A DNA stretch of 29,093 nt from Alphaproteobacteria bacterium (lineage in GTDB: Bacteria > Pseudomonadota > Alphaproteobacteria > UBA6615). The stretch lies in assembly GCA_965261975.1 (NCBI GenBank), contig CBDHEC010000029.1, positions 1 to 29,093 on the forward strand, given 5' to 3'. The notes under the pieces are model-generated. The model was given only the letters and a program-made list of their open reading frames with translations. It was not told where the DNA came from and did not search any database. The position numbers were made by a program, and so were the translations under genes. Below are positions 8,545-25,565 of this stretch, piece after piece (the first letter of the stretch is position 1; each line of letters starts with the position of its first letter).

Positions 8545-8558
8545 GTCGTCCTCCCTTA

Positions 8559-10634
8559 TCAGCGGCAGTCGAGGATGTAGCTGTCGGCGGCGCTCAGTCG
8601 CGCGGACATCCCCGGATAGACGACGATGGTCGTGGTGGGTTCCTCGATGATGGCCGGTCCCGTGACCGTGTCGCCGGCCTGGAGATCGGGCCCCCTGAAG
8701 ATCGGTGTCGCGACGGGGCTGTCGCCGCCGAAGAAACATTCCCGCGTGGTTGCGGAGTCGGACGCGTTGCTGTCCGTTGTCGGTTCCGGTGCGGCCGGCG
8801 GGTCGAAAGGCTGGATCGAGATGCGTCCCTTCCAGTTCACGCATTCGACCGGGCTGCCCTCGTCGCGCACCGCGTAGATGCGTTCATGGGTCTTGTGGAA
8901 TGTCTCCACCAGCTCGGCGACGTCCGCGTCGTTTTCGAGGCGGGGTTTCGGGAGCGCGGTGTCGAGCTCCCAGACCTGCGCGCGGTAGCGTGCCTCGACG
9001 AAGAACTCGATGCTGACCTGGGCATCTTTCGACGTGCCGAGGCTGTCGCGGAATTCCATCAGTTCGGCCTCGATCTCGTCGAGGGAGCGGTTGGCACCCT
9101 CCCGGTCGAACCCGTTCGAATCCGTAAACCGCGAGCGTGTCGCCTCGAACACGATGGACGAGAATTGCATCCCGCAGGCCGACAGGGCCGAGGCGGTGCG
9201 GGGCAGGATCACCGTGTCGCAGCCCAGCTCCTGGGCGATCGGCATGATGTTGAAGCCCGCCGCTCCGCCGCCGGCGACGATGACGCTCTCGCGCGGGTTC
9301 AGCCCGTCATTGACGGTGATCTCGCCGATCGCCTTGATCATCAGTTCGTTGGCGATGACCATGATCGAGTGCGCCGTCTCGTCGACGCCCTTGCCCATGC
9401 TTTCCGCCAGTTTCGAGATCACCGCGACGGCGGCGTCGCGGTCGAGTGACAGGCGCCCGCCGTTGAAATAACCGGGGTCGATATAACCGAGCACCAGGGC
9501 TGCATCGGTGACCGTGGGTTCCGTGCCGCCGGCACCATAACAGGCCGGGCCCGGGACGGAGCCCGCCGACTGGGGGCCGACCCGCAGCAATCCGCCCGGG
9601 TCCACCCAGGCGATGGAGCCGCCGCCCGCGCCCACCGAACGGACGTCGACGGTGGAGGTGCCCATGATGTCGCCGGTCCACAGGGGGCCGAGCCAGGAAT
9701 CGCGGGAATAGATCAGGTTGCCGTCGCGCACCAGGCCGACGTCGAAGGTCGTGCCGCCGGTGTCGCAGACGATCACGTCGCCGCCCATCCGTTCCAGCGC
9801 GGAATAGGCGCGTGCCGCGACCGGGGCCATGGCCGGCCCCGACTTGAGCGTGTTGATCGGGCGCTCGACGAGGGATTCGACCTCCTGGCAGCCGCCGACG
9901 GCCGTGGAGACCAGCAAATCGCCGGCAAACCCGCTGTCGGCGAGATCCGTGCGCATCTGGCGCAGATGCGCCTGCATGAGAGGTTTCAGCGAGGCATCGA
10001 TCGCCGTCGCCGAGGCGCGGCGATATTCGCGCAGGATTGGCGCGAGCCGGTGCGACAGGGTGTAGGGCACCCCTGGCATGATCTCCTCGATCAGCTCGCC
10101 GAGCCGGGCCTCGTGGGCCTCGTTGGCGATCGACCAGAGCAGGGACACCGCGATGGCCTCGAAGCCGCGGGCCTTCAGGGTCTCGATGACTTCGCGGGCC
10201 TGGGCCTCGTCGAGCGCCCGGACGACTTCGCCCGAGGCGCCGATGCGCTCATTGATTTCGAAGGTGCGCCTGCGGGGAATATAGGGTTGCGGGTAGTCGT
10301 AGCTGTAGTCATGGGGGCCGTGCTTGCCGCCCTCCTTGAACACCAGGATATCGCGGAAGCCGGCGGTGGTCAGGAATGCCGTGCGCGCGGTCTGCTTGGT
10401 GACGATCGCGTTGGTGGCCCGCGTGGTGCCGTAGATCAGCAGGTCCGTCGCGGCAAGCATGTCCTTCGGGGTTGTCTCGAAGGTTTCGGCGACGACCTCG
10501 AGGGCGTTGAACATGCCCTCCGATATCCGGTCCGGGGTCGTCAGCGCCTTGCCGACGTGAAACTCGCCATCTTCACTGAGCACGACCATGTCCGTGAACG
10601 TGCCGCCGGTGTCGACGGAAATACGGTAACCCAT
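8559..10634 (-). CDS. Hydantoinase A/oxoprolinase family ATP-binding subunit (HyuA-like)
   Basis: Motifs VDTGGTFTD, GTTRATNA, SGPA, DTGGTTFDV, GAGGGSIA and SAGSVPGPACY. Start taken as ATG 10634. Confidence 0.94.
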   Translation of the reverse strand: MGYRISVDTGGTFTDMVVLSEDGEFHVGKALTTPDRISEGMFNALEVVAETFETTPKDMLAATDLLIYGTTRATNAIVTKQTARTAFLTTAGFRDILVFKEGGKHGPHDYSYDYPQPYIPRRRTFEINERIGASGEVVRALDEAQAREVIETLKARGFEAIAVSLLWSIANEAHEARLGELIEEIMPGVPYTLSHRLAPILREYRRASATAIDASLKPLMQAHLRQMRTDLADSGFAGDLLVSTAVGGCQEVESLVERPINTLKSGPAMAPVAARAYSALERMGGDVIVCDTGGTTFDVGLVRDGNLIYSRDSWLGPLWTGDIMGTSTVDVRSVGAGGGSIAWVDPGGLLRVGPQSAGSVPGPACYGAGGTEPTVTDAALVLGYIDPGYFNGGRLSLDRDAAVAVISKLAESMGKGVDETAHSIMVIANELMIKAIGEITVNDGLNPRESVIVAGGGAAGFNIMPIAQELGCDTVILPRTASALSACGMQFSSIVFEATRSRFTDSNGFDREGANRSLDEIEAELMEFRDSLGTSKDAQVSIEFFVEARYRAQVWELDTALPKPRLENDADVAELVETFHKTHERIYAVRDEGSPVECVNWKGRISIQPFDPPAAPEPTTDSNASDSATTRECFFGGDSPVATPIFRGPDLQAGDTVTGPAIIEEPTTTIVVYPGMSARLSAADSYILDCR

Positions 10635-10756
10635 TAACTCTTCCCCCTGATGAAACACCGTGGCTTTTGCTTCATGTTTGCCTGCGGCGAGACGCGCCTG
10701 ATGCGCCATGCTTTAATACTCCAACACACGGGCTTATGACGCAACGGAGAACAAGA

Positions 10757-11383
10757 ATGGATTACGCCGAACGGGGCTATGGCGACGGCGAGGTGGGCTG
10801 GGGCGAGCGCCCCGGCGTGGTGGTCGTCGACTTTCAGCGCGGCTTCACCGATCCGGAGTTCCGGATGGGCGGCGCGCCGATGATCGATGCTGCGGTGGAG
10901 CGCACGGTGGACGTGATCCGGGCGGCCAAGGATTGCGGGTTTCCTGTCGCCGCTTGTGTGATGGGCTACCACTCCCAGGCGGCGATGCCCCACTGGAAGA
11001 TCGCGCCGCTGCGCGAAGAGTTGGTCGAGGGGCATCCGTCAGTCGAGCTTGACCCGCGAATCGCCGCGGCAGAACCGGACCTCGTCGTCACGAAGGGCGC
11101 GCCGTCGATCTTCTTCAACACCCAGGTATCACCGTTCCTGATCAAGCACGGGGTCGACACGGTCGTCGTCACCGGCTGCATTACCTCGGGTTGCGTGCGC
11201 GCCTCGGTGATCGACGCCTTCAGCCTCGGGTTTCGCACGATTGTGCCGGAAGATTGTGTCGGCGATCATGACGAGGAACCCCACCAGGCGAACCTGCGTG
11301 ATGTGGACCGGCGATACGCCGATGTCGTCGACGCGGAAACGGTGCTCTCGAACTTCGAACGGTTGCGCGGCCGAAACAGCTAG
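10757..11383 (+). CDS. Isochorismatase-family cysteine hydrolase (N-carbamoylsarcosine amidase/maleamate amidohydrolase-like)
   Basis: Asp-Lys-Cys triad in VVDFQ, VTKGAPSIF and GCITSGCVRASVIDA. ATG 10757 follows a GGAGA RBS. Confidence 0.92.
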   Translation: MDYAERGYGDGEVGWGERPGVVVVDFQRGFTDPEFRMGGAPMIDAAVERTVDVIRAAKDCGFPVAACVMGYHSQAAMPHWKIAPLREELVEGHPSVELDPRIAAAEPDLVVTKGAPSIFFNTQVSPFLIKHGVDTVVVTGCITSGCVRASVIDAFSLGFRTIVPEDCVGDHDEEPHQANLRDVDRRYADVVDAETVLSNFERLRGRNS

Positions 11384-12192
11384 TCCAGGTCGCGGAAGGG
11401 CGCCTCGCGCTCGGCCAGCACGTCTTTCAGAGGTTCATCGCGCATCTTGCGCATCCAGGCGCGTCCCTCCGGTGATGCGTGCAGGGACGAGATCGCCTCG
11501 ACATTGTAGAGCCACGAACTGGTGAGGCCCGCGCTCTCCTGCTGGTGGTTGATCGAGGCCTTCGCGAACTTGATCGCGGGCCCGGGGATGCGCGCGAGCT
11601 TGCGCGCAAGGCGCCGCGCCTCGTCCATAAGCTGATCTCCCGGCACGGCCCGGTTCACAAGATGGATTCGCTCGGCCTCCCGGCCGTCCACCATGTCGCC
11701 GGTGTACATTAGCCAGCGCACATGCCGGATCGGCATGGTCCAGGGCATCATCAGCGAGGGTGGGCCGGACGCATGACGCACTTCCGGCTCGCCGAGCATC
11801 GCGTCGTCGGCCGCCAGCGCCAGGTCGCAGCACATGGCGAGTTCGAGACCGCCGGCCAGCGCGAAGCCGTTGATGGCCGCGATGACCGGCACGTCCGAAC
11901 TCCAGATGGTGCGCAGACGCTCGCAATTCGCCGACATGTCTTCACGCCACGCTTCGGTGTCCATCTCGAAATCATCGCTGATCAGGTCGAACCCCGTCGT
12001 AAAGGCGCGGCCCGCGCCGGTCAGGATGATCGCGCGAATGTCGGGATCTTTTTGCGCGTCGCGTACGGCGTCGTCGATGGCGTCGAGAAGTTCGAGATCG
12101 AGCGCGTTCAGCTTGTCGGGCCGGTTCATTGTCAGCGTCACGAAGGCGTCGTCGGGGTCGCGTTCGATGAGGAGTACGGGGGCGTCGGTCAT
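11380..12192 (-). CDS. Enoyl-CoA hydratase/isomerase (crotonase) family protein
   Basis: Motifs LTMNRPDKLNAL, LTGAGRAFTTGFDL, AAINGFALAGGLEL and GEPEV, so both crotonase Glu positions are present. Confidence 0.93.
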   Translation of the reverse strand: MTDAPVLLIERDPDDAFVTLTMNRPDKLNALDLELLDAIDDAVRDAQKDPDIRAIILTGAGRAFTTGFDLISDDFEMDTEAWREDMSANCERLRTIWSSDVPVIAAINGFALAGGLELAMCCDLALAADDAMLGEPEVRHASGPPSLMMPWTMPIRHVRWLMYTGDMVDGREAERIHLVNRAVPGDQLMDEARRLARKLARIPGPAIKFAKASINHQQESAGLTSSWLYNVEAISSLHASPEGRAWMRKMRDEPLKDVLAEREAPFRDLD

Positions 12193-12225
12193 TATCCGGG
12201 TTCCTTGGGTTGGACGTTGCCGGGA

Positions 12226-13980
12226 TCAGATGTTGTCGGGGCAGATAATGCCCGGGTCAGGGGTGTCACCATAGAGCCGCTCGACCAGTTCGGCACGATT
12301 GCGCAGGCAGGTCTTCTGGACGAGGTGGCCCTTGTCGTTGATCTCGCCGGCCGAACGGTCGGGCGGACCGTCCGCGATCGCGGCGCGAAAGACAGAAGTT
12401 GAGCTGCCCGGCATGGCGGCGTTGTGGGCGCTCAGTGCCTGGGCCATGCGTGCCTGTAAATCGTCATCATGTTCCGCCATGGCCGCTTCCGTCGGGAACA
12501 GGATGGCCGCAATTCGAGCTTGTCCGGCCCCGGCAATGGCGACGTCCTGCAGGTCGGGGGCACAGGCCGCGAGCAGCGCATGACGCAGGGCGCCGACCTT
12601 GACCCGCGATCCCGTGGTCAGCTTGAAGTCCTCGGCAAGTCGGCCGTCGAAGCAAAGCCCGTGCTCGGGTGCATCGTCATGCAAGGCAAGGGCGAGATCG
12701 CCGGTCCGCAGGAACCCGTCGTCGTCGAGGGACAGGCTCTCAAGCCCGCCCGGTCCGACATAACCCGGCGACACATTCGGCCCGCGAAACCGAACCTCCA
12801 GCGCACCGTCGACCGGCGCCAGGCGCAAGGCGTGGCCCGGCAGGGGGAGGCCGATTTCGTCTGTACGCCCGGCCGGTTCATGTCCGAGGCACATGGTCGA
12901 GCCGGCCTCCGTGGCACCGTATCCCGACAGAACCAGCGGCGGGCTGCCGGGCCCATGGGGTCCCGCCGCGACGGCATCCCGCAGGCGTTGCCATGTCGGC
13001 GCGCCCATGCCCGCACCAGCGAAGAAAATCAGGTCAAGGCGCTCGAACAGCGCCGCGCGGGTTTTTGCATCGTCGGCCAGATGGTCGAGCAGCAGGTCGA
13101 TGCCATAGGGCACGTTGATGTGGATCGTCGGTCGGACGTCGCGGATGCGCTGGGCGAATGCGTCCATGTTGTCGGGCCCCGGCGGCGCCTCGACATGGTA
13201 GGCGCCACCGAACCAGATCATCTTGTGGAAATTATCGAGCCCGCCGAAAACATGGTGCCAGGGCAGCCAGTCGATCAGCACGGGTCGCCGGGCCGCGAGA
13301 AACGGCCAGTGCACGCCATAGGCACATTGGCAGGACGCAATCATGCGCCGGGTGATCGACACCCCCTTGGGGACCCCGGTGGAGCCGGACGTGAAATAGA
13401 TCGCGGCGCGGTCGTCCGGGGCGGTGACGGCGCGCGAGAACGGGGATTCGGGGGCTTCCTGCAGTTCGTTCGGGTCGACGACCGTACCGCATAGAGTGGT
13501 CAACTCCGCGTTGATTTCCTGTGGCGACGCGACGGTGACGCTTGGCGCGGCGGCGGCAAGGAGGCCCGCCAGTCGCTTGCGCCCGTGGTGCGATGTCAGA
13601 AGCAGCGGCGACAGCGGGACATGCACCAGCCCCGCCTTGAGGCAGGCGAGTTTCAGCGCCGCATGCAGCGCACCGGCTCCCGCGATGACCGCGACCGCTG
13701 CGCCGGGCGCGAGGCCGCGTGTGACCAGATCATCCGCCAGCGCGTCGGAGCGGCGATCGATTTCGCCATAGGTCGTCGTGAGTATGTCGCCGTTCTTGCG
13801 CTCGCTGATGAAAGTCGCGTCACGGTCCGATTCCACCCAATGGTCGAACCGGGCCAGTATGTCGGGCAACGGGTCGGGCAAAACGGCGCGGTTGTGCAGC
13901 AGGACCGAGCCATCGGGCCAATCCTCGCGCTCGATTTGGTTGGGTGCCAGTCTGACGTCGGACCTGGGGGCGGCGGGCAT
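12226..13980 (-). CDS. AMP-binding acyl-CoA ligase, feruloyl-CoA synthetase-like
   Basis: Motifs YFTSGSTGVPKG, DWLPWHHVFGG, GYGATE, RGPNVSPGY, TGD, DGRLAEDFKLTTG and GEINDKG. Start is uncertain (ATG 13980 or TTG 14001). Confidence 0.87.
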   Translation of the reverse strand: MPAAPRSDVRLAPNQIEREDWPDGSVLLHNRAVLPDPLPDILARFDHWVESDRDATFISERKNGDILTTTYGEIDRRSDALADDLVTRGLAPGAAVAVIAGAGALHAALKLACLKAGLVHVPLSPLLLTSHHGRKRLAGLLAAAAPSVTVASPQEINAELTTLCGTVVDPNELQEAPESPFSRAVTAPDDRAAIYFTSGSTGVPKGVSITRRMIASCQCAYGVHWPFLAARRPVLIDWLPWHHVFGGLDNFHKMIWFGGAYHVEAPPGPDNMDAFAQRIRDVRPTIHINVPYGIDLLLDHLADDAKTRAALFERLDLIFFAGAGMGAPTWQRLRDAVAAGPHGPGSPPLVLSGYGATEAGSTMCLGHEPAGRTDEIGLPLPGHALRLAPVDGALEVRFRGPNVSPGYVGPGGLESLSLDDDGFLRTGDLALALHDDAPEHGLCFDGRLAEDFKLTTGSRVKVGALRHALLAACAPDLQDVAIAGAGQARIAAILFPTEAAMAEHDDDLQARMAQALSAHNAAMPGSSTSVFRAAIADGPPDRSAGEINDKGHLVQKTCLRNRAELVERLYGDTPDPGIICPDNI

Positions 13981-14131
13981 GGCGTGTGTTCGGTTGTGCA
14001 AAGTCTCTTCGGGAGTTCGAACAATGGCAGAGCCGATCTTGCCTCTGCAACCGGCGGCGAAAACCTGCCTCTCGCATTCCGGCGCCGGGTCGGGCTAAAT
14101 CTGTTCGCGAAGATATGTTGAGGAAAGTTCC

Positions 14132-14761
14132 ATGACGTCCAGCCCAACCGTGATCGACCACCCGTTGCTGCAGCACAAGATTTCGTTGCTACGTGACAAG
14201 AATACGCCGTCGATCATTTTTCGGCTGCTGGTGCGTGAGATTGCCCAGCTCATGATGTTTGAGGCGACCCGCGATCTGGCGCTGACCGAACGGGAAATCG
14301 AAACGCCCCTGTCGAAGATGACGGCACCTGTCTTGGCCGAACCCGGGCCGGTGCTGGCATCGATCATGCGGGCGGGAAATGTGATGCTGGACGCCGGATT
14401 GGAGATCATCCCGTCCGCGAGTGTCTGCCATATCGGAATCTATCGGGACCACGATACCCTCGAGGCAGTCGAGTATTATTTCAATGGCCCACCGGACATC
14501 GCGGAACGTGCACTCTTGATCGTCGATCCCATGCTCGCGACCGCCAACTCGTCGGTCGATGCGATCTCCCAGCTCAAGGCGCGCGGCGTGACCGACATGC
14601 GCCTGATCTGCATCCTGGCCGCGCCCGAGGGGCTGGCCGCCCTGGCCGCGGAACATCCCGACGTGCCGGTCTTCGTCGGGACGGTCGACAACCATCTCAA
14701 CGAGAAGGGCTACATCGTTCCGGGACTGGGCGATGCCGGCGACCGCAGCTACGCCACCTGA
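14132..14761 (+). CDS. upp: Uracil phosphoribosyltransferase
   Basis: HPLLQHKISLLRDK, IMRAG, the PRPP loop IVDPMLATANS, and the C-terminal YIVPGLGDAGDR. Length is 209 aa. Confidence 0.95.
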   Translation: MTSSPTVIDHPLLQHKISLLRDKNTPSIIFRLLVREIAQLMMFEATRDLALTEREIETPLSKMTAPVLAEPGPVLASIMRAGNVMLDAGLEIIPSASVCHIGIYRDHDTLEAVEYYFNGPPDIAERALLIVDPMLATANSSVDAISQLKARGVTDMRLICILAAPEGLAALAAEHPDVPVFVGTVDNHLNEKGYIVPGLGDAGDRSYAT

Positions 14762-15774: not shown

Positions 15775-16677
15775 TCACGCGCGTATGGAGTCGATTTCCT
15801 CGACGAGGAAGTCGATGAAGGCGCGTGTCTTCAGCGCCAGGGTGCGCTGCGCGGGATAGAGAACGAACACCGCTCCCTCGACCCTCTCGAAGTCGGGCAG
15901 GAGGCGAACGAGGCGGCCGTCGGCGATGTCGGCCGCGACCACATGATAGGGCACGCGCGCGATCCCCGCGCCGGCCAACGCGGCTTCGCGTGCGACCGAC
16001 AGGTTGGAACTGCTGATGGGGCCGTCGACGCGGACCGTGTGATCGACACCATCGATGTCGAAGACCCAGTCCGTTGCCATGATCGCGGCGGTGAGCGGCA
16101 GGCAGGCATGGTCGACCAGCTGCTTGGGATGTGACGGCGTTCCCCGGCGCGCGATGTAGTCCGGGCTGGCGCAGACGACGTGCGGGGTTTCCATGATCTT
16201 TCGCGCGACGAGGGAGGAGTCCGGCAAACTCGCGGCGGCGCGAATGACGATGTCGAAGCCGTCGCCGACCGGGTCGGCATAGTTGTCGGAGAGCACGGCA
16301 TCGACGCGCACCTCGGGGTAGCGCGCAACAAATCGCGGCAGCATCGGCGATATGAACATATGCCCGAACGAAACCGGCATGGTGACACGCACCAGGCCGC
16401 GCGGTGATGCCGTCACGGCGTGCACCATCTCTGCGCCCTCGCCAAGCGCGTCGAGGGCCGTGGCGACGCTGGCCTGGTAGGCCAGCCCCGCTTCGGTAAG
16501 CGCGAGGTGCCGCGTTGTACGTGCGATCAGGCGCGTGCCGAGACGGGCCTCCAGCTCGGCGATAGCCTTGCTGACGGTCGAGGGAGATAGCCCGAGCTGC
16601 TCGGCGGCGCCTCGAAAGCTGCCGGTCTCCGATACGGCGTTGAACATCTCCAGCGAGCGGGTGGAGGGCAATGTCAT
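15775..16677 (-). CDS. LysR-family transcriptional regulator (CrgA/DmlR-like)
   Basis: HTH GSFRGAAEQLGLSPSTVSKAIAELEARLGTRLIARTTR, plus PRGLVRVTMP and CASPDY..RRGTP.HP. Confidence 0.96.
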   Translation of the reverse strand: MTLPSTRSLEMFNAVSETGSFRGAAEQLGLSPSTVSKAIAELEARLGTRLIARTTRHLALTEAGLAYQASVATALDALGEGAEMVHAVTASPRGLVRVTMPVSFGHMFISPMLPRFVARYPEVRVDAVLSDNYADPVGDGFDIVIRAAASLPDSSLVARKIMETPHVVCASPDYIARRGTPSHPKQLVDHACLPLTAAIMATDWVFDIDGVDHTVRVDGPISSSNLSVAREAALAGAGIARVPYHVVAADIADGRLVRLLPDFERVEGAVFVLYPAQRTLALKTRAFIDFLVEEIDSIRA

Positions 16678-16890: not shown

Positions 16891-17976
16891 ATGTCCGAGT
16901 ACAGCAATTTGTTTCAGAGCTACGATATGCGCGGCTTGGCGCTGCCCCATCGCGTTGTAATGGCGCCGATGACGCGCAGCCGCGCGGGCGAGGGCGATGT
17001 TCAGGGTGAGATGAATGCAGAATATTACGCGCAGCGCGCGTCTGCGGCGCTGATCGTGACGGAAGGTGTGCAACCGAGCCTCGACGGCAAGGGCTATTGC
17101 CGGACCCCGGGCATTCACACGGACGAGCAGGTCGCGGGTTGGAAAGCAATCACCGACGGGGTGCATGCGAAGGGCGGACGGATCGTGTGCCAGTTGATGC
17201 ATGCGGGCCGGATCGCGCATCCGCTCAACAAGAGCGGCGGAAATATTGTGTCGGCGTCGGCGGTGCAGGCCGGTGGCCAGATGTTCACGGTGCAGGAAGG
17301 GCCGCAGGATCACCCGGTTCCCCACGCGCTGACGACGGACGAGGTGAAGGTAACGATTGGAGAGTTTCGGCACGCGGCCGAATGCATCCAGCGCGCCGGT
17401 TTTGACGGTGTCGAGCTGCATGCCGGCCAGGGGTATCTGCCGATGCAGTTCATGTCTCCCAATGTGAACCAGCGCGATGACGAGTATGGCGGGTCGGTCG
17501 CCAACCGCGTGCGGTTCCCGATCGAGATCATGGAACAGCTGGTCGACGTGATGGGGGCCGACAAGGTGGGCATCCGCATCGCACCGGGTAACACCTTCAA
17601 CGACGTGAAGGATGACCATCCTGAGGAGACCTATACGGCGCTGTTGCAGGGTATTCGTCCGCTGAACCCGGTCTATCTGCATGTGGTCACGCCGTTCCCG
17701 CATATGAGCCACGCCGTGCCGGAGAATGTGACGGAGCTGTGTCGCAGCAACTTCGACGGCACCCTGATCCGCAACGGCGGTTACACCGCGGAAAGCGCGG
17801 ATGCCGCGATCGCGTCCGGCGAGGCGGACCTCGTGGCGTTCGGAAAGATGTTCCTGGCGAACCCGGATCTGCCGAAGCGATTCGAGGTGGGCGCGGAGCT
17901 GAACGAGTGGGACATGGACACGTTCTACGCACCGGGGCCCAAGGGGTACATCGACTACCCGACCCTGGAAGGATGA
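16891..17976 (+). CDS. Old Yellow Enzyme-family alkene reductase (NemA-like)
   Basis: RVVMAPMTRSRA, YYAQRASAALIVTEG, QLMHAGR, GFDGVELHAGQGY, RDDEYGGS, NPDLPKRF and FY...KGYIDYP. Confidence 0.95.
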   Translation: MSEYSNLFQSYDMRGLALPHRVVMAPMTRSRAGEGDVQGEMNAEYYAQRASAALIVTEGVQPSLDGKGYCRTPGIHTDEQVAGWKAITDGVHAKGGRIVCQLMHAGRIAHPLNKSGGNIVSASAVQAGGQMFTVQEGPQDHPVPHALTTDEVKVTIGEFRHAAECIQRAGFDGVELHAGQGYLPMQFMSPNVNQRDDEYGGSVANRVRFPIEIMEQLVDVMGADKVGIRIAPGNTFNDVKDDHPEETYTALLQGIRPLNPVYLHVVTPFPHMSHAVPENVTELCRSNFDGTLIRNGGYTAESADAAIASGEADLVAFGKMFLANPDLPKRFEVGAELNEWDMDTFYAPGPKGYIDYPTLEG

Positions 17977-18126
17977 GGTGACGTCACGGATGGTGGCCGG
18001 CGCTGGTGGCCGGGCCATTCGGCCCCGGTCGGCCGTTGTTCGGATGACGTTTACCGGGGTGCCGACTGAGGATAAGAATAGATAAACGCCGGGCCCACCC
18101 GGCTGTGACATTCAGGGAGATGCAGC

Positions 18127-19380
18127 ATGCATTACAATCAACCTCGTTCCACCGCGACCTGGGGCACGATGGCCAAGGACTGGGAGATCGGTGTCGATTT
18201 CCAGCGGCTTAACCGGGAACGCCCGGCGCGTGCCAAGGCGGCGATCAAGGAAGCCGGTCTCGCAGCCGTGCTGTGTTTCACCTTCGACAATATCCGCTAC
18301 GTCACGGGCACCCATATCGGTGAATGGGGGCGGGATAAATTCGACCGCTACGCGATCTGCCCGGCCGAAGGCGACTACTATCTTTGGGATCCGGCCCCGC
18401 CGGCCAAGCGCAAGAGCGCGCCCTGGCTCGACGGGCGCGTCGATGCGCCGATAAGCACGCTGCAAGGGGCGCTGCCGCCCAAGCACGGCATCCAGGATGA
18501 TTTCGCCAAGCAGATCAAGAAGGCTTTGGTCGATATGGGGATCGATGGCAAACCCCTGGGCATTGATCTGATGGAACTCCCGATGTTGCGGGCGCTTGAG
18601 GCAGAAGGCATCGAGGTCGTCGACGGTCAGCAGGCCATGCTGAATGCGCGCGAGGTCAAAACCCAGGACGAGATCGAGTTGCTCAAGCAGGCGGCTGCGA
18701 TGGTCGACGGCACTTACTACGACATCGCCGCTGCGATCCGCCCCGGCGCGCGCGAAAGCGATCTCGTCGCGATCGCGCATGACCGGCTCTACAGCATGGG
18801 GTCGGAGCGGGTCGAGTGCATCAACTCCGTCGCCGGTCCGCGTGGCGCGCCCCATTCGCACACCTTCTCGGACCGGATCATCCAGCCGGGTGACATGATC
18901 TTCCTGGACATCATGCATTCGTTCAACGGCTACCGGACCTGTTACTACCGCACCTTCATTTGCGGCGTTCCCAACGAGGCCCAGATCGAAGCCTATGAGC
19001 AGTGCTCGAAATGGGTGAGCGCTGCGATCGATGCCATCAAGCCGGGCGTCACGGTCGATGAGATCGCGCTGGTCTGGCCCAAGGCCGAGGAATTCGGCTA
19101 CGCCAACGAAGAAGAAGCCTTCCTGTTGCAGTTCGGGCATGGGATCGGCCTCAGCCTGTGGGAGCGTCCGATCATTTCGCGGCGTTATCTCGGCCAGGAC
19201 ACGGTCCTGAAAGAGGGCATGGTCTTCGCGGTTGAGTGCTGGAAGGGCGCCGAAGACGGATCCGGCGCGGCGCGCATCGAAGAAGAGGTCGTTGTCACCA
19301 AGGATGGCTGTGAGATCATCACCAACTATCCGAGCGACCATCTGATTTCTTGCGGCCTGCCAGGCTGCGAAATCCTCTAG
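18127..19380 (+). CDS. M24 (pita-bread fold) Xaa-Pro peptidase/creatinase-like enzyme with an atypical metal site
   Basis: Creatinase/prolidase N-domain (NIRYVTG), REVKTQDEIELL, GDMIFLD, FGHGIG, GMVFAVE and ARIEEEVVVT. A GGGAGA RBS precedes the start. Confidence 0.9.
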   Translation: MHYNQPRSTATWGTMAKDWEIGVDFQRLNRERPARAKAAIKEAGLAAVLCFTFDNIRYVTGTHIGEWGRDKFDRYAICPAEGDYYLWDPAPPAKRKSAPWLDGRVDAPISTLQGALPPKHGIQDDFAKQIKKALVDMGIDGKPLGIDLMELPMLRALEAEGIEVVDGQQAMLNAREVKTQDEIELLKQAAAMVDGTYYDIAAAIRPGARESDLVAIAHDRLYSMGSERVECINSVAGPRGAPHSHTFSDRIIQPGDMIFLDIMHSFNGYRTCYYRTFICGVPNEAQIEAYEQCSKWVSAAIDAIKPGVTVDEIALVWPKAEEFGYANEEEAFLLQFGHGIGLSLWERPIISRRYLGQDTVLKEGMVFAVECWKGAEDGSGAARIEEEVVVTKDGCEIITNYPSDHLISCGLPGCEIL

Positions 19381-19408
19381 ATCGGTTTCGGCCGGGGACA
19401 TTCTGATC

Positions 19409-20311
19409 ATGGCGCATGACACGAAAGTCGGTTGGATCGGCGTGGGCATGATGGGGGAACCCATGGCCCGCAACGTGATGAACGCCGGATTCCCTCTCCG
19501 GGTCTACAACCGGACGCGCGACAAGGTCCGCGATCTGGAGAAGGATGGCGCCGGTGTCGCAGACAGTGTTGCCGACCTGGCATCCGGCTGTGATGTCCTC
19601 ATCTCCATGATTTCCGCTGATGCGGCGCTCGAGGCTGTTTCCATTGCCGAGGGTGGTGCCTTCGCAGCCATGATGCCCGGCAGCATATTCATCGACATGA
19701 GCACGGTCTCGCCGGCGATGTCGGCACGTGTTGCCGAAGTGGCCGAGGCGAAGGGGATCCACTATCTGCGGGCCCCGGTGTCCGGCAGCATTGGTCTTGC
19801 GGCGGCGGGGACCCTCACGATTTTCGCGTCGGGGCCGGAGAACATCTTCGAGGATTGCCGCGGCCTGTTCGAGGCGATGGGCGGCAAGGTGTTTCATGTG
19901 GGCGCCGCCGAGGAATCTCGTTTCCTCAAACTGTCGATCAACATGATGGTGGGCATCACGGCCGGCATGATGGCCGAGGCGTTGACCCTCAGCGAAAAAG
20001 GCGGCGTGGACTGGGACCAGATGATCGACATCATCGGCAGCAGTGCGGTTGCCTCACCCCTGGTCGGCTACAAGGTCGATGCCCTGAAGAACCGCGATTT
20101 CACACCCGCCTTTCCGGCCTGGATGATGTCGAAGGATTTCGACCTCGCGCTGGATGCGGCCCGGGATGAGAGTATCCCGCTGCCGATCACATCGCTGGTG
20201 CGCCAGCACTGGAGTGCCATGGAGGCCACCGGTCGCGGCGAGATGGATTTCTTCGCCTATGTGACCCTGATGGAGCATCTGTCGGGTCTCGGGGACGATT
20301 CGAACGACTGA
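19409..20311 (+). CDS. NAD(P)-dependent beta-hydroxyacid dehydrogenase (3-hydroxyisobutyrate dehydrogenase/tartronate semialdehyde reductase family)
   Basis: GWIGVGMMG, YNRT, IDMSTVSP, RAPVSGS, the catalytic Lys in LKLSINMM, and KDFDLA. Confidence 0.93.
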   Translation: MAHDTKVGWIGVGMMGEPMARNVMNAGFPLRVYNRTRDKVRDLEKDGAGVADSVADLASGCDVLISMISADAALEAVSIAEGGAFAAMMPGSIFIDMSTVSPAMSARVAEVAEAKGIHYLRAPVSGSIGLAAAGTLTIFASGPENIFEDCRGLFEAMGGKVFHVGAAEESRFLKLSINMMVGITAGMMAEALTLSEKGGVDWDQMIDIIGSSAVASPLVGYKVDALKNRDFTPAFPAWMMSKDFDLALDAARDESIPLPITSLVRQHWSAMEATGRGEMDFFAYVTLMEHLSGLGDDSND

Positions 20312-20409
20312 CGGTCGCGCTTGTTTCCGGGCGTCGGGGAAGATTTACCGTATCGGGTTTCGTGTTGCGGTGGTTTTGGCCGCGAAAGCAAGAAGAGGAA
20401 AAGACATTC

Positions 20410-21609
20410 ATGGCGCGTATTCAGGTCACCCTGATCACCGGCTTTCTCGGTAGCGGCAAGACGACCCTCCTCAACGCGTTGCTGCAGCACCCGGACATGT
20501 CGCAGGCCGCAGTGATCGTGAATGAGTTCGGCGAGATCGGCCTCGACTACGACCTGGTCGAGCGCAGCGATGAATCGGTCGTGCAACTGGAAAACGGATG
20601 CCTGTGCTGCACGGTCAAGAGTGACCTGATCGATACCTTCCGGGACCTGCATCTTCTGCGTCTCAGTGGGAAGTTTCCGAAGTTCGACCGGGTGGCGATC
20701 GAGACGACTGGCATTGCCGACCCCGGGCCTGTCCTGCAGATCATTCTCACCGATCCGCTCGTGAGCAATGTGTATTCGCTGGATGGCGTGGTCACGACGA
20801 TCGACGCGATCAATGGCGAGGATTCGCTCGACCGGTTCGCCGAATGCGTCAAGCAGGCCGCCATCGCGGACCGGATTTTCATCACCAAGAGCGACTTGCT
20901 GGCCGACGATGAGCGTGACGCGAAGCTTGCCGCAATCGAAGCACGACTGAAGGCCATGAACCCGGGTGCGAATATCGTTCAGGCCGATGCCCGGGACATC
21001 AAGCCGTCCGATCTGTTCGGGCACGGTCTTCTGGACCCGCGGAGCAACACGGTCGATGTCGAGGCATGGTTGCGGGCGGAAGCCTATGTCACGCCCGATG
21101 GCACGCCGGTGTCCAATGCCGGGGTTCGTTTGCCGCGCAGCGGTCAGGCGGAGGGCGACACGAAGGCATACTACGAAAGCTACGGCCACCAGCCGGCCGA
21201 CATGCACGATGTGCACGATGACGACCATGACCATGACCATGACCATGACCATGCGCATGATCCGCTGATCAATTCCTTCTGCCTGGTGCGTGAAGAGCCG
21301 ATCGCGATGGACACGCTGCGGATGTTCCTGGAAGCGCTGGCCAATGAGGCGGGGCCGGACCTGCTGCGGGTCAAGGGCATCGTCAATGTTGCCGAACGCC
21401 CCGAGAATCCTGCGGTGATCCAGGGTGCCCAACAGATATTCCATTCCCTGGAATGGCTGCCGAATTGGCCGACCGATGACCTTCGCACGCGGATCGTGTT
21501 CATTACCCGTGGGCTCGATCAGGCCTATATCGAGGATTCGTTCGAACTGATCGAGCGGGTCGCTGCCCGCACCATTGCGGCGGGCGCCGGCATGCCGGCG
21601 CAGATCTGA
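20410..21609 (+). CDS. COG0523/CobW-family G3E GTPase metallochaperone
   Basis: Walker A GFLGSGKTT, NEFGE, GCLCC (CxCC), ETTG, TKSD, a His/Asp tract, and the CobW_C motif LLRVKG...IVFI. ATG 20410 follows a GAGG RBS. Confidence 0.95.
   Translation: MARIQVTLITGFLGSGKTTLLNALLQHPDMSQAAVIVNEFGEIGLDYDLVERSDESVVQLENGCLCCTVKSDLIDTFRDLHLLRLSGKFPKFDRVAIETTGIADPGPVLQIILTDPLVSNVYSLDGVVTTIDAINGEDSLDRFAECVKQAAIADRIFITKSDLLADDERDAKLAAIEARLKAMNPGANIVQADARDIKPSDLFGHGLLDPRSNTVDVEAWLRAEAYVTPDGTPVSNAGVRLPRSGQAEGDTKAYYESYGHQPADMHDVHDDDHDHDHDHDHAHDPLINSFCLVREEPIAMDTLRMFLEALANEAGPDLLRVKGIVNVAERPENPAVIQGAQQIFHSLEWLPNWPTDDLRTRIVFITRGLDQAYIEDSFELIERVAARTIAAGAGMPAQI
21223..21252 (+). repeat. (GACCAT)5 perfect hexamer repeat encoding (Asp-His)5 in the CobW-family linker
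   Basis: gaccat x5 read directly from the sequence and in frame. Confidence 0.95.
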
Positions 21610-21714
21610 GACCCGTATGAAACCGTCATTCGTTCAATATTCGATTCATATCCCGACCCCGGCCCTGATGGGGCCGGTGGCCCGTGCGGCGATGGATCAA
21701 TGCAGGAGCCGATC

Positions 21715-23910
21715 ATGGTAAAGCACATCAATCTGAGCCCCGAGGCGCCGTGGCAGGAAATTCGTTCCACCGCAAAGGACTGGGACAACGTCGGCGAGGA
21801 TGAGGTGATCCGGATGCTGCAGCATCTGCATCTGGTCCGCGCGTTCGAGGAGACGGTGCTGGAGCTGGACGGCGAGGGCCTGATCCATGGTCCGGCCCAT
21901 TCGAGCATCGGACAGGATGGTGGAGCGGTTGGCGCTATCGCGGCGATGCGCGGCAGCGACCAGATCACCGGCTCGCACCGCGGTCATCACCAGTTTCTTG
22001 CCAAGGCGCTGCGTTATGTGGATGAAGGTGCCCCCGATCCCCGCGAGACCCCGCCGTCGGGCGAGGTCGAGACGCTGCTGAGGCGGAGCCTGGCGGAGAT
22101 CCTGGGTCTGTCCGAGGGTTACTGCAAGGGACGCGGTGGCTCGATGCATTTGCGATGGGAAGAGGCCGGGGCGCTTGGGACCAACGCGATTGTCGGCGGC
22201 GGTGTGCCCCTGGCGAATGGCGTCGCCTGGGCGCGCAAGCGCAAAGGGGAGGGCGATGTTGTGTTCACCTTCTTCGGCGATGGCGCGGTCAATATCGGCT
22301 CGATCCCCGAGTCCCTGAATCTTGCCGCGCTCTGGGACCTGCCGATCTGTTTCTTCATCGAGAATAACGGCTATGCCGTCTCTACCACCCTGGAAGAAGA
22401 AACGCGCGAAACCCGATTGTCTTCACGCGGGCTCGCCTACGGAATTACCTCCTTCAGGGTCGATGGCATGGACCCGATCGCGGTTCGCGTTGCGGCTCAG
22501 GAGGCCGTCGATCTGATGCGCGCCGGCAAGGGCCCGGTCATCATCGAGGCCAATGTCTATCGTTACTTCCATCATGGTGGTGGCATCGCGGGCAGCGCGT
22601 TCGGCTATCGCGACAAGGAAGAAGAGGCCGAGTGGCGCACGCGCGATCCCCTGATGAAGATCGCCAAGGAAGCGATCAAGCGCAACTGGATCGACGCGGA
22701 TGGCGATGCGGCGATGCGTGCCGGTGCCCAGGAGATCATGCAGCGTGCCGCAGAACAGTTGACGGAGCAGGACGGCAACCAGCGTCAGATCATTCCGGCC
22801 CTGTGGCCCGATACAGCGTTCCGGGACGAGGGACTGCGCGGCGACATGTCCGAGTTCGACGGTGTTCGCTACGAGGAGCTGGAAACCTTCTCGGGCGAGA
22901 TCACCGAGATGAAGTATGTCGAGGCCTGTTCCGGCGTCATGAACCGGCGGATGGAAACCGACGAGCGGATATTCTGCATCGGTGAGGACATTCACCGCCT
23001 GCGCGGCGGCACCAATGGCGCCACGAAAGGCTTGGCCGACCGGTGGCCCGACCGGACGGTCGGCACCCCGATCGCCGAACTCGGCTTCACCGGCCTGGCG
23101 GGTGGCGCGGCCATGGAGGGCACCTATCGCCCCGTGGTCGAGCTCATGTATCCCGACTTTGCGCTGGTGGCGGCCGACCAGCTGTTCAACCAGATCGGCA
23201 AGGCGCGTCACATGTTCGGCGGCGAGACCAACATGCCGGTCGTGGTGCGTACCAAGATCGCGTTGGGGTCGGGCTATGGATCCCAGCATTCCATGGACCC
23301 GGCCGGGCTTTATGCCCAGTGGCCGGGCTGGCGGATCGTCGCGCCGTCGACGCCGTTTGACTATGTCGGGTTGATGAACAGCGCCTTGCAATGCGAGGAC
23401 CCGGTGCTCGTGATCGAGCATGTCGAGCTTTACAACGCGGACGGGCCGGGGCCGGCCGAATACCTCGATTATTACATCCCGCTGGGCAAGGCCAAGGTGG
23501 TGCGCCCGGGCGAGACCTTTACGGTACTGACCTATTCCGCGATGACGGCCAAGGCGATCAACAGCGCCGAGCAGATGGGACTGGATGCGGAGATCATCGA
23601 TCTACGCTCCCTTGACCGGGCCGGGATCGACTGGGATTGCATCGGCGACAGTATCCGCAAGACCAATAACGTCGTGGTTGTCGAGCAGGGCCCACTGACA
23701 GTCTCGTACGGGGCGATGCTCACCGATGAGCTGCAGCGGCGCTTCTTTGACTATCTCGACCAGCCGGTGAAGCGAATCCATGGCGGCGAATCCTCGCCGA
23801 GCGTGTCGAAGATCCTGGAGCGTTCCTCGATGGTCGGGGAAGAGGAAATCCGTGCAGGCTTTGCCGAGATCATGGCCGATATGGGCCTCGGCCAGATGGC
23901 CACGCAGTAG
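21715..23910 (+). CDS. Fused E1 alpha/beta TPP-dependent 2-oxoacid dehydrogenase-family enzyme
   Basis: Alpha domain: HSSIGQ, SHRGH, GRGGSMH and the TPP motif GDGAVN..ENNGY. Beta domain: IGEDI, TPIAE, DQLFNQ, SQHS and IDLRSL. The AGGAG RBS favours ATG 21715 over 21700. Confidence 0.93.
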   Translation: MVKHINLSPEAPWQEIRSTAKDWDNVGEDEVIRMLQHLHLVRAFEETVLELDGEGLIHGPAHSSIGQDGGAVGAIAAMRGSDQITGSHRGHHQFLAKALRYVDEGAPDPRETPPSGEVETLLRRSLAEILGLSEGYCKGRGGSMHLRWEEAGALGTNAIVGGGVPLANGVAWARKRKGEGDVVFTFFGDGAVNIGSIPESLNLAALWDLPICFFIENNGYAVSTTLEEETRETRLSSRGLAYGITSFRVDGMDPIAVRVAAQEAVDLMRAGKGPVIIEANVYRYFHHGGGIAGSAFGYRDKEEEAEWRTRDPLMKIAKEAIKRNWIDADGDAAMRAGAQEIMQRAAEQLTEQDGNQRQIIPALWPDTAFRDEGLRGDMSEFDGVRYEELETFSGEITEMKYVEACSGVMNRRMETDERIFCIGEDIHRLRGGTNGATKGLADRWPDRTVGTPIAELGFTGLAGGAAMEGTYRPVVELMYPDFALVAADQLFNQIGKARHMFGGETNMPVVVRTKIALGSGYGSQHSMDPAGLYAQWPGWRIVAPSTPFDYVGLMNSALQCEDPVLVIEHVELYNADGPGPAEYLDYYIPLGKAKVVRPGETFTVLTYSAMTAKAINSAEQMGLDAEIIDLRSLDRAGIDWDCIGDSIRKTNNVVVVEQGPLTVSYGAMLTDELQRRFFDYLDQPVKRIHGGESSPSVSKILERSSMVGEEEIRAGFAEIMADMGLGQMATQ

Positions 23911-23924
23911 GACGGGGGCGACAG

Positions 23925-24467
23925 ATGACGGCAGAGTCAAAAGGTATTCCCGGCCTCCGGGGTACCGATCATATCGGGATCACCGTGCCGAACCTGGAGG
24001 AAGCGGTCGCGTTTTTCATCGACGTGATCGGTTGCGAGCCGTTCTACGAAATCGGCCCGTTCGAGTTCGACGATGACTGGATGAAGGAACGTCTGAACGT
24101 TCATCCGCGCACGGTGATGCGGAAGCTCAAATTTCTGCGCTGCGGGAATGGCTCCAATTATGAGCTGTTCGAGTATGAGGCGCCGGACCAGAACACGAAA
24201 CCGCCGCTGAACAGCGATATCGGCGGCCATCATCTGGCGCTTTACGTCGATGACATGGACGCGGCGCTCGATCATCTGCGCGCCCATGGGGTGCAGATCC
24301 TGGGCGAACCCACGGTTCGCACCGACGGGCCGAGCGCGGGCCAGAGCTGGGTCTATTTCCTGGCGCCCTGGGGGCTGCAGTTCGAGCTGGTCTGCTTCCC
24401 CGACGGCAAGGGGTATGAACGCGAGACCGACCGGCGGCTCTGGCACCCGGCCTTTCCCGACCAGTAG
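23925..24467 (+). CDS. VOC (glyoxalase) family metalloprotein, epimerase-like
   Basis: Four metal-ligand positions are visible in DHIGITVP, YELFEY, HHLALYVDD and PWGLQFEL. The gene starts 14 nt after the E1 stop. Confidence 0.9.
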   Translation: MTAESKGIPGLRGTDHIGITVPNLEEAVAFFIDVIGCEPFYEIGPFEFDDDWMKERLNVHPRTVMRKLKFLRCGNGSNYELFEYEAPDQNTKPPLNSDIGGHHLALYVDDMDAALDHLRAHGVQILGEPTVRTDGPSAGQSWVYFLAPWGLQFELVCFPDGKGYERETDRRLWHPAFPDQ

Positions 24468-24485
24468 GCCATCGGCTTTCCGGCC

Positions 24486-25565
24486 CTAGTCCACCGTGTA
24501 GCGTTTTACTGCGTCCGCACTGAAAATCATGCCGTGACCGGGTCGGTCGGGCGGCGCCATATGTCCGTCTGTAATCACCGGCGGATGTTCCCACAGATCG
24601 TCCGGTGATCCCGCGAGCACCTCGACGAGTGCGGCGTTGGGGATGGCCGCCAGGACCTGGATGGACAATTCCGGCACCAGATGCGGCGCGATCTTCACGT
24701 CATAGGCGGCCGCGAGATGGGAAATCTTCATCATCTCGCTGAACCCGCCGCAGCGGTGAATGTCCGGGTTGAGAAACTGCGCTGCGCGCGCCTCGATCAG
24801 GTCGCGAAAGCCGTAGCGTGTGTACTCATTCTCTCCCGTCGCGACCGGTATTGGGATCCCGGCGGCCACGTCGGCGCATTGCTGGATGTTGTCGGCCAGC
24901 ACCGGTTCCTCGTACCAGTACAGTCCGAACTCCTCGAGCATGCGGCCCACACGAATGTTGGTGGCGACGTCCCAGCGCTGATTGGCGTCGACCAGGATCT
25001 CCATGTCGAAGCCGAGCGCCTCGCGGACACGCCGGACACGGTCGATATTCTCGGCCACGTTGGGCAGGCCCAGTTTGAATTTGTAGTGACGACAGCCTTG
25101 TGCGCGAAAGGCCTCGGCTTCGGCGATGATTTCGTCGACCGAGTAGGACAGAAATCCGCCGCTGCCATAGACCGGCACATGTTCGTTATGTGCGCCGAGC
25201 AGGTGCCAAACGGGGCGGTCTAGCGACTTGCCGAGGATATCCCACAGGCCGATATCGATCGCGCTCATGGCGTAGACGGGGATGCCCTTCTTGCGCAGGC
25301 CGCGGTCATTCTCGTACATGGCCTGCCAGATGGCGCCGATCTGCAGCGGGTCGGCGCCGATCACCAGCGGCAGGATGCTGTCTTCCAGATAGGCCCTGAC
25401 CGCGCTCGCCCCCATGCCGCCGACAAGCATCGTGTAGCCCAGGCCTTCGATGCCCTCATCGGTTTCGATGCGCGTGACGACGTAGGTGTTGGCCGCATAA
25501 TAGGTGTTAACCGGCGGCCCGTTCGGGACCGCCATCGTCGAAATGGTCACGTTTGTAATTTTCAT
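24486..25565 (-). CDS. Mandelate racemase/muconate lactonizing enzyme family (enolase superfamily, MR subgroup)
   Basis: SAIDIGLWDILGK, the KxK motif YKFK, metal ligands in VDAN/WYEEP/TGEN, the Asp-His dyad in NPD...APH, and RPGHG. ATG 25565 follows a GGAG RBS; the ORF-track start at 25808 is over-extended. Confidence 0.93.
   Translation of the reverse strand: MKITNVTISTMAVPNGPPVNTYYAANTYVVTRIETDEGIEGLGYTMLVGGMGASAVRAYLEDSILPLVIGADPLQIGAIWQAMYENDRGLRKKGIPVYAMSAIDIGLWDILGKSLDRPVWHLLGAHNEHVPVYGSGGFLSYSVDEIIAEAEAFRAQGCRHYKFKLGLPNVAENIDRVRRVREALGFDMEILVDANQRWDVATNIRVGRMLEEFGLYWYEEPVLADNIQQCADVAAGIPIPVATGENEYTRYGFRDLIEARAAQFLNPDIHRCGGFSEMMKISHLAAAYDVKIAPHLVPELSIQVLAAIPNAALVEVLAGSPDDLWEHPPVITDGHMAPPDRPGHGMIFSADAVKRYTVD

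Follow-up and report, generated by a model that had tools for sequence, protein, structure and literature searches.

The current analysis concerns five co-directional genes on contig CBDHEC010000029.1 of an alphaproteobacterium of the UBA6615 lineage (assembly GCA_965261975.1; 3.03 Mb, 94.6% complete). The entire 29-kb contig, 29,093 nucleotides in length, was analysed and is referred to as the window. Genes were called from the list of open reading frames (ORFs) and from Pfam and NCBIfam scans of the window proteins. In order, the five genes encode an M24 protein, an NAD(P) dehydrogenase resembling HIBADH, a COG0523 metallochaperone-type GTPase, a thiamine pyrophosphate (TPP)-dependent E1 component with the alpha and beta parts fused, and a protein of the vicinal oxygen chelate (VOC) family (Table 1). 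Counted from the likely starts of the COG0523 and E1 genes, the intergenic gaps are 28, 98, 105 and 14 bp, and a sixth gene, for an enolase-superfamily protein of the mandelate racemase (MR) subgroup, converges on the VOC gene 18 bp beyond its end. The families, direction and gaps agree with a preliminary description made from the sequence alone, which had proposed a candidate undescribed catabolic pathway; none of the six proteins reached the cut-off of a specific NCBIfam equivalog model. The genes from M24 to VOC (18127-24467) probably represent the lower part of the oxidative hydroxyhydroquinone (HHQ) pathway in a variant form of a marine alphaproteobacterium.

Table 1. Position, strand, product length and basis of assignment of the window genes considered here
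Gene product	Coordinates	Strand	Length	Basis
M24 protein with Creatinase_N	18127-19380	+	417 aa	Pfam
NAD(P) dehydrogenase, HIBADH-like (NAD_binding_2 + NAD_binding_11)	19409-20311	+	300 aa	Pfam
COG0523 GTPase (cobW + CobW_C)	20362-21609 (ORF; likely start Met17 = 20410)	+	415 aa (ORF)	Pfam
Fused E1 alpha-beta (E1_dh, Transket_pyr, Transketolase_C in one chain)	21700-23910 (ORF; homologues begin at residue 6 = 21715)	+	736 aa	Pfam and alignment
VOC protein, glyoxalase fold	23925-24467	+	180 aa	Pfam
MR-subgroup enolase-superfamily protein (MR_MLE_N + MR_MLE_C)	24486-25565	-	359 aa (from the MKITNV start)	Pfam
LysR regulator	15775-16677	-		Pfam/NCBIfam
NemA-type old yellow enzyme (OYE), divergent from LysR	16891-17976	+		Pfam/NCBIfam

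Gene families recurring around the fused E1

Related loci were fetched, one genome per species, with an alignment of 13 homologues of the fused E1 (A1). An E1 relative was encoded in 560 stretches, the best 80 of which were retained for all locus counts. Queries for the tblastn searches of partner genes were the window proteins and others taken from the loci, and matches had to cover at least half of the query; the counts are lower bounds, as contig ends shorten some loci. The most frequent partner was an E2 gene (63/80), followed by VOC (53), short-chain dehydrogenase/reductase (SDR; 38), M24 (33), aldehyde dehydrogenase (ALDH; 28), HIBADH-like (24), shikimate-dehydrogenase-like (13), COG0523 (11), E3 (10) and OYE genes (7). 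DoxX and the large subunit of a molybdenum (Mo) hydroxylase were each found in 4 loci, and MR in 2.

Where the E1 shares at least 65% identity with that of the window (27 loci), VOC was present in 24, M24 in 20 and E2 in 16; eight of these loci (L001, L003, L004, L005, L008, L009, L024 and L053) lack E2 despite sufficient contig. Gene order varies among loci, and the order M24-HIBADH-COG0523-E1 was found also in L001 and L007. In Alpha-, Beta- and Gammaproteobacteria as well as Actinobacteria, the fused E1 is repeatedly accompanied by these gene families. This joint recurrence across classes and phyla bears out the functional linkage that had been suggested for the five co-directional genes, which, judged by sequence conservation, are a conserved cluster and a functionally linked catabolic unit. 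The E1 had also been called an orphan; this is true for the window and its assembly, and not for the family, in which E2 is the commonest neighbour.

Neighbours were annotated in 12 proteobacterial loci, in which the E1-VOC pair is often trailed directly by lipoyl-E2 and E3 genes and DoxX membrane proteins also recur. In L002, L003 and L053, all from Alphaproteobacteria, a Mo hydroxylase and its Fe-S subunit are encoded immediately upstream of HIBADH-E1-VOC, and the first domain of this hydroxylase is pyrogallol-hydroxytransferase-like.

A second E1 subgroup, 57-63% identical (L026-L041, L051, L060 and L073), was found in Paracoccus, rhizobia, Brucella anthropi and Acinetobacter. Its layout is SDR, E1 and E2 followed by a shikimate-dehydrogenase-like gene, an ALDH gene or both, with VOC and M24 mostly missing, and it probably acts on a different substrate.

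Resemblance to the oxidative hydroxyhydroquinone pathway

The HHQ pathway is known from a nitrate reducer, Aromatoleum anaerobium, in which resorcinol is turned into HHQ and HHQ into a hydroxybenzoquinone before the ring is opened. A resorcinol cluster of 25 kb, with rehLS, btdLS, bqdLMS and redR1/redR2, has been described in Aromatoleum anaerobium (Azoarcus anaerobium) and deposited as GenBank EF078692.1 (PMC10084136). Of these genes, rehLS specifies the hydroxylase that makes HHQ, btdLS the HHQ dehydrogenase that makes 2-hydroxy-1,4-benzoquinone (HBQ), with BtdS a DoxX protein of 135 aa, and bqdLMS the ring-cleaving 'HBQ dehydrogenase' (PMC10084136). The same paper reports two almost identical sigma-54 activators (bacterial enhancer-binding proteins), divergent promoters P_rehL1 and P_bqdL and a third operon transcribed from P_orf14, and describes the other genes of the cluster as of unknown function (PMC10084136).

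The fused E1 of the window shares 69% identity over 724 aa with P0255, a 740-aa A. anaerobium protein that was retrieved by a search seeded with a Thauera aromatica E1 homologue and that NCBI names 'alpha-ketoacid dehydrogenase subunit alpha/beta [Aromatoleum anaerobium]'. Comparison with the published cluster was made through a relative, G207, found among 401 sampled genomes from the family of the Sterolibacterium metagenome-assembled genome that carries L006 (G001); eight of the 401 carry this fused E1, and A. anaerobium itself was not among them (best match 88%). The E1 of G207 is 87% identical to P0255 and lies within a cluster of about 23 kb, where E3-E2-E1 on the minus strand diverge from the Mo hydroxylase large and small subunits and VOC. 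The same cluster holds a first activator, then an operon of OYE, M24, a cupin, DoxX (129 aa), HIBADH and ALDH, and continues with an MFS transporter, a DsbA-like protein and a second activator that is 94% identical to the first, both being of the sigma-54 type. The DoxX gene adjoins the HIBADH gene in G207 and in L033, and the M24 gene in L018; either partner is a candidate for the published BtdL. Between the window and G207, identity is 78% for M24, 71% for VOC, about 70% for E1 and 54.7% for the HIBADH-like protein.

Since the G207 cluster reproduces the published layout and matches the window proteins, the window E1 is taken to be of the BqdL type and the five genes to belong to the HHQ gene set, with M24, VOC and the HIBADH-like protein as conserved companions of the E1. 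A study by Darley in 2007 is said to have found HBQ cleaved to acetate and malate, and the 3,5-dihydroxybenzoate cluster of Thauera aromatica AR-1 is reportedly related to the HHQ cluster of A. anaerobium. The five-gene combination, which the preliminary description did not recognise, matches the reh/btd/bqd gene set (PMC10084136), and a match to a characterised pathway, which that description had named as speaking against its proposal, was thus largely found. The cluster is best regarded as a variant of a known, incompletely understood pathway and not as a new pathway. In the literature searched, the fused E1, the M24 protein and the VOC protein have no assigned function; two papers outside that search, Molina-Fuentes 2015 and Pacheco-Sanchez 2019, may do so.

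The E1 keeps the TPP motif GDG...NN, of the form GDG-X(25-30)-NN, with G193, D194, G195, N222 and N223 invariant or almost invariant across alignment A1. It shares this motif and the domains E1_dh, Transket_pyr and Transketolase_C with the E1 components of pyruvate dehydrogenase (PDH) and acetoin dehydrogenase (PDB 1ni4, 1w85 and 2bp7 families), with E-values of 1e-54 to 1e-16 to the E1 subunits of PDH and of branched-chain ketoacid dehydrogenase. Unlike these, it joins alpha and beta in one chain, falls below the cut-offs of all NCBIfam PDH E1 models and has VOC as a conserved partner; its proposed substrate is a cyclic hydroxyquinone rather than pyruvate or acetoin. In one protein of 911 aa (P0242), whose protein cluster has 11 member sequences, a BqdL-type E1 and a VOC protein are naturally fused. 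Several NCBI records label the fused E1 'MFS transporter', which looks like a propagated misannotation.

The VOC protein of the window, from a superfamily marked by paired beta-alpha-beta-beta-beta modules and His/Glu metal ligands, matches Glyoxalase_4 and Glyoxalase above the Pfam cut-offs, and its residues H16, E80, H102/H103 and E154, invariant in 16 sequences, are by their pattern the putative metal ligands. Prediction of an E1-VOC complex scored 0.00 in both runs, which were made without controls, and counts neither way. For the HIBADH-like protein, a dehydrogenase of the beta-hydroxyacid or semialdehyde reductase type, the best NCBIfam model was tartronate semialdehyde reductase (217.9 against a cut-off of 340.75).

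The Cys-type M24 protein, its putative chaperone and a possible ring cleavage

The M24 protein was aligned to the Pyrococcus prolidase 1pv9, whose metal ligands we take to be Asp, Asp, His, Glu and Glu. The corresponding window residues are D261, C272, H338, E370 and E385, so that Cys stands at the position of the second Asp. Thirty-five M24 sequences were compared, namely those of the window, of 33 loci and of G207, with identities of 47-90% and Actinobacteria included. All 35 carry the D-C-H-E-E pattern and the motif GYRTCYYRT (with a His variant in one), and the exact motif occurs in five more M24 homologues of other Alphaproteobacteria, one of them from a genome of 1.4 Mb and 36% GC. More distant paralogues (35-37% identity) retain the Cys within GYKSCYYRT, and a 34% paralogue on contig C54 carries the canonical Asp. 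The best NCBIfam model was DddP (NF043017) with 113.1 bits against a cut-off of 600, and the full-length alignments in PDB were to DddP structures (4s00, 4b28; E about 1e-25).

The protein thus shares the Creatinase_N and M24 fold, and four of the five ligand positions, with prolidase 1pv9, DddP, creatinase 7yto and the ectoine hydrolase DoeA (6twk). It differs from them in having Cys272 for Asp and in its partners, which are a TPP-dependent E1 and not peptide or osmolyte genes. By these residue patterns, the Cys-type M24 proteins are a distinct, strongly constrained clade with a predicted thiolate in the metal site, and the window protein is, on the same grounds, not a canonical peptidase. 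The preliminary description had ascribed non-canonical active sites to two members of the cluster. The atypical M24 was borne out by this alignment; no second such protein was found, as E1, VOC and COG0523 keep their motifs.

A second Cys-type M24 paralogue of the window's own genome, 35% identical and with the motif GYKSCYYRT, is encoded on contig C8 (42514-43746; L105:8488-9747). Its neighbours encode a PPDK_N/PEP-utilizer protein, a fumarate-reductase-like flavoprotein, a UPF0261 protein and an HpcH aldolase.

The COG0523 protein keeps the family hallmarks GSGKTT and CLCC and a His/Asp-rich linker, HDVHDDDHDHDHDHDHAHD; cobW and CobW_C scored above the Pfam cut-offs, and the NCBIfam equivalogs for YjiA-like GTPase, CobW and ZigA below theirs. 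Among the 11 loci with an M24 that shares at least 76% identity with the window protein, tblastn found the COG0523 gene in 9, and L013 has one by Pfam; where M24 identity is at most 58%, all 22 loci lack it. The gene also lies directly upstream of E1 in L004 and L005, whose contigs end on the M24 side. The examined stretch of G207 has an M24 of the closer group but no COG0523. A role as nitrile hydratase activator was considered and rejected: nitrile hydratase genes follow VOC only in L001, and are absent from the window and from the five other annotated loci with COG0523. To our knowledge, few clients of COG0523 proteins have been reported.

These observations can be arranged into a possible route. 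The TPP-bound E1 would attack a carbonyl group, either in HBQ itself or in a cyclic dione formed from it by tautomerisation or hydration, and a ring C-C bond would be broken; acetoin-cleaving E1 enzymes and TPP enzymes that open cyclic 1,2-diones are parallels for this step. The acyl group may then pass to a lipoyl-E2, possibly that of a housekeeping PDH-type E2/E3, or an aldehyde or acid may be set free instead. The VOC metal would bind the vicinal hydroxy-keto group and prepare or tautomerise the substrate, before or after the E1 step. The Cys-type M24 protein, with its metal loaded by COG0523, may catalyse a non-peptidase hydration, dehydration or C-C hydrolysis on the ring or on a ring-opened intermediate. 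The HIBADH-like enzyme would perform an NAD(P)-linked step, either redox chemistry at the HHQ/HBQ level or reduction of a semialdehyde, and HHQ could be supplied by a RehLS-like Mo hydroxylase encoded on contig C8.

Oxygen-independent oxidative cleavage of HHQ is among the least understood aromatic routes, and only its first steps have assigned genes. The module reaches beyond the denitrifying Betaproteobacteria, to marine Alphaproteobacteria and Actinobacteria. It provides concrete candidates for the missing ring-opening chemistry, and M24 is a candidate COG0523 client. The potentially valuable part is the enzymology of the Cys-type M24 protein, the VOC protein and the chaperone.

Alternative substrates and neighbouring genes

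Several observations weigh against the assignment to the HHQ pathway. The window has the BqdL-type fused E1 of the A. anaerobium cluster, together with the VOC, M24 and HIBADH-like genes seen in G207, and the genome has a RehLS-like pair. Unlike that cluster, however, the window has no gene for E2 or E3 (BqdS/BqdM) or for DoxX (BtdS), and no dedicated copy was found in the assembly; it lacks sigma-54 activators, COG0523 is inserted before E1, and it stems from a marine-type alphaproteobacterium, not from a denitrifying (nitrate-reducing) betaproteobacterium. The best E2 matches of its own genome (55% on contig C19, with a lipoyl-domain match just upstream, and 35% on C17) probably belong to housekeeping complexes. 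DoxX gave no match in this genome with a single query, the DoxX of L018, in an assembly of the completeness given above. The RehL/RehS-like pair (996 and 283 aa; C8:73855-80172, L087:9855-16172) is 63-65% identical to L002/L003 and 55% to G207 in the large subunit, and 57% and about 55% in the small one. It is unlinked to the cluster and shares its string of genes with an SDR and a sulfatase, an IclR gene being divergent; the string may be a unit for aryl-sulfate or phenolic hydroxylation. Furthermore, P0255 is presumably the published BqdL by virtue of synteny in a relative, and the HHQ roles proposed above for VOC, M24, COG0523 and the HIBADH-like protein are inference only.

The distribution of the M24 protein adds to these points. 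When 400 other sampled Alphaproteobacteria were screened (one M24 genome being flagged unpublished), 17 had an M24 of at least 47% identity and 10 a fused E1 (47-64%), and only 3 had both. Among five M24 loci inspected, three (L096, L097 and L098) adjoin split E1 alpha and beta genes, one a HIBADH-like gene and one neither. The fused-E1 query thus undercounts the M24-E1 partnership, because split E1 genes adjoin M24 in three of the five. The M24 proteins of these three loci carry the Cys motif, and the identity of the split E1s to that of the window is no more than 29-37%. One of the three, L096, lies in the genome of 1.4 Mb and 36% GC mentioned above (G434:C1:619000-636000) and encodes a sugar-type ABC transporter, SDR, M24, E1 alpha, E1 beta, ALDH, an IolG-like protein, IolC, IolB and a class II aldolase. 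IolE is encoded about 1 kb upstream, and the Cys-type M24 and split E1 are thus inside an inositol locus. L096 and the HHQ-type locus L002 have ALDHs that share 64.6% identity; such ALDHs score as succinate-semialdehyde dehydrogenases.

IolE and IolD bring about ring opening in the myo-inositol pathway, in which a cyclohexane-1,2-dione is cleaved in a TPP-dependent reaction. The likeness to the window cluster is one of logic, with a six-membered cyclic dione as the target of a TPP enzyme; the difference is that IolD belongs to the acetolactate-synthase-type TPP family and not to the E1 type. Replacement of IolD and IolE by E1 and M24 was considered for G434 and not adopted, IolE being adjacent there and IolD encoded elsewhere; IolD was not found above the cut-off in its sister genome G743 (94% complete). 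In the genome of the window itself, IolE had no match and IolD none above the cut-off. The earlier mention of a cyclitol substrate is of interest for the wider family, as the Cys-type M24 and a split E1 occur in an inositol locus.

It is possible, and is put forward tentatively, that a general undescribed module opens six-membered carbocyclic hydroxy-diones, both HBQ and those of the inosose type, and that it is made up of a Cys-type M24, a VOC protein and either the fused or the split form of a TPP-dependent E1. M24 would here be a hydratase, tautomerase or C-C hydrolase loaded by COG0523, and an E2-less E1 would borrow the housekeeping lipoyl-E2/E3 or work alone. HBQ (C6H4O3) equals trihydroxycyclohexane-1,2-dione (C6H8O5) minus two H2O, so that a ring-opening module shared by aromatics and cyclitols is chemically conceivable, as a matter of arithmetic only.

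A narrower alternative is that the module acts in the window organism on a non-aromatic carbocycle or another alpha-hydroxyketone or 1,2-dione, such as an inosose-derived cyclohexanedione, with HHQ being one use among others. The split E1s beside the Cys-motif M24, the inositol locus and the ALDH of L096 agree with this, as does a window cluster without Mo hydroxylase, DoxX and E2. However, the window M24 (the 76-90% group) and E1 (the group of at least 65%) belong to the subgroups that are co-localised with RehLS-type hydroxylases, DoxX and the A. anaerobium-like cluster, the split E1s are distant from that of the window, and the genome shows no recognisable IolE or IolD and the cluster no sugar transporter. 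Such a substrate is therefore rather unlikely. Far less probable is the new pathway of the preliminary description, in which an N-containing hydroxy- or keto-acid or a sugar acid would be degraded, M24 catalysing C-N hydrolysis or lysis, VOC epimerisation, MR racemisation or dehydration and E1 C-C cleavage. Its family assignments were correct, and the merely distant likeness of M24 to DddP, creatinase and ectoine hydrolase makes a non-peptide substrate plausible. Nothing pointing to nitrogen was found, however, as no aminotransferase, deaminase or amine oxidase is conserved in the annotated loci, and the conserved partners (E2/E3, ALDH of the succinate-semialdehyde type, DoxX and Mo hydroxylases) fit the known aromatic pathway.

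The place given to the MR enolase in that scheme was not upheld either. Its two matches among the 80 loci are in the near-identical relative L001 and, at 28% identity, in L041; in L001 (E1 94% identical) the MR gene stays beside dcp and is separated from VOC by a nitrile hydratase operon. The MR enolase is an unrelated convergent neighbour. It scored 232.9 against a cut-off of 500 with the TalrD/GalrD model NF047820 and did not reach the level of an L-talarate/galactarate dehydratase. The five genes might also be two or three independent adjacent units, M24 with HIBADH, COG0523 alone, and E1 with VOC, a division that the gaps of 98 and 105 bp, the variable gene order, a GC-rich hairpin between COG0523 and E1 and a weak terminator-like site at 20305-20317 would suit. 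The gap hairpins, however, have no U-tracts and fold no better than shuffled sequence (z +1.4 and +0.4), and the promoter/terminator scan gave nothing beyond chance, with 4 promoter-like sites against 2.7 expected. The five families recur jointly across classes and phyla, and COG0523 occurs only with this M24 subgroup or directly upstream of E1 in the two contigs that end on the M24 side. Separate units are thus improbable, and separate promoters would leave the functional linkage intact.

In L001, the nitrile hydratase operon at 12659-14362 comprises the alpha and beta subunits and a small accessory gene, at a place where the window has only 18 bp. Upstream of M24, the window carries the divergent LysR-OYE pair, which was considered as part of the cluster and rejected. 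It is absent from L001, where an alpha/beta hydrolase gene immediately precedes M24. The NemA-type OYE of the window is only 30% identical to the YqjM/NamA-type OYEs of HHQ-type clusters and is not orthologous to them, and its LysR is 33% identical, in the helix-turn-helix only, to the cluster-linked LysR of L003. The pair is probably a separate upstream unit. A long, near-perfect GC-rich hairpin lies just after the OYE stop (17977-18060); the minimum free energy of this 150-nt gap is -64.6 kcal/mol (z = -1.2 against shuffles).

Further to the left, the region 6745-14001 encodes a hydantoinase B and A pair (oxoprolinase/carboxylase type), an isochorismatase, an enoyl-CoA hydratase and an AMP-binding ligase, beyond which lie an MFS transporter, an aldo-keto reductase and an amidohydrolase_2 protein. 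The genes from the hydantoinase pair to amidohydrolase_2 may be another catabolic unit.

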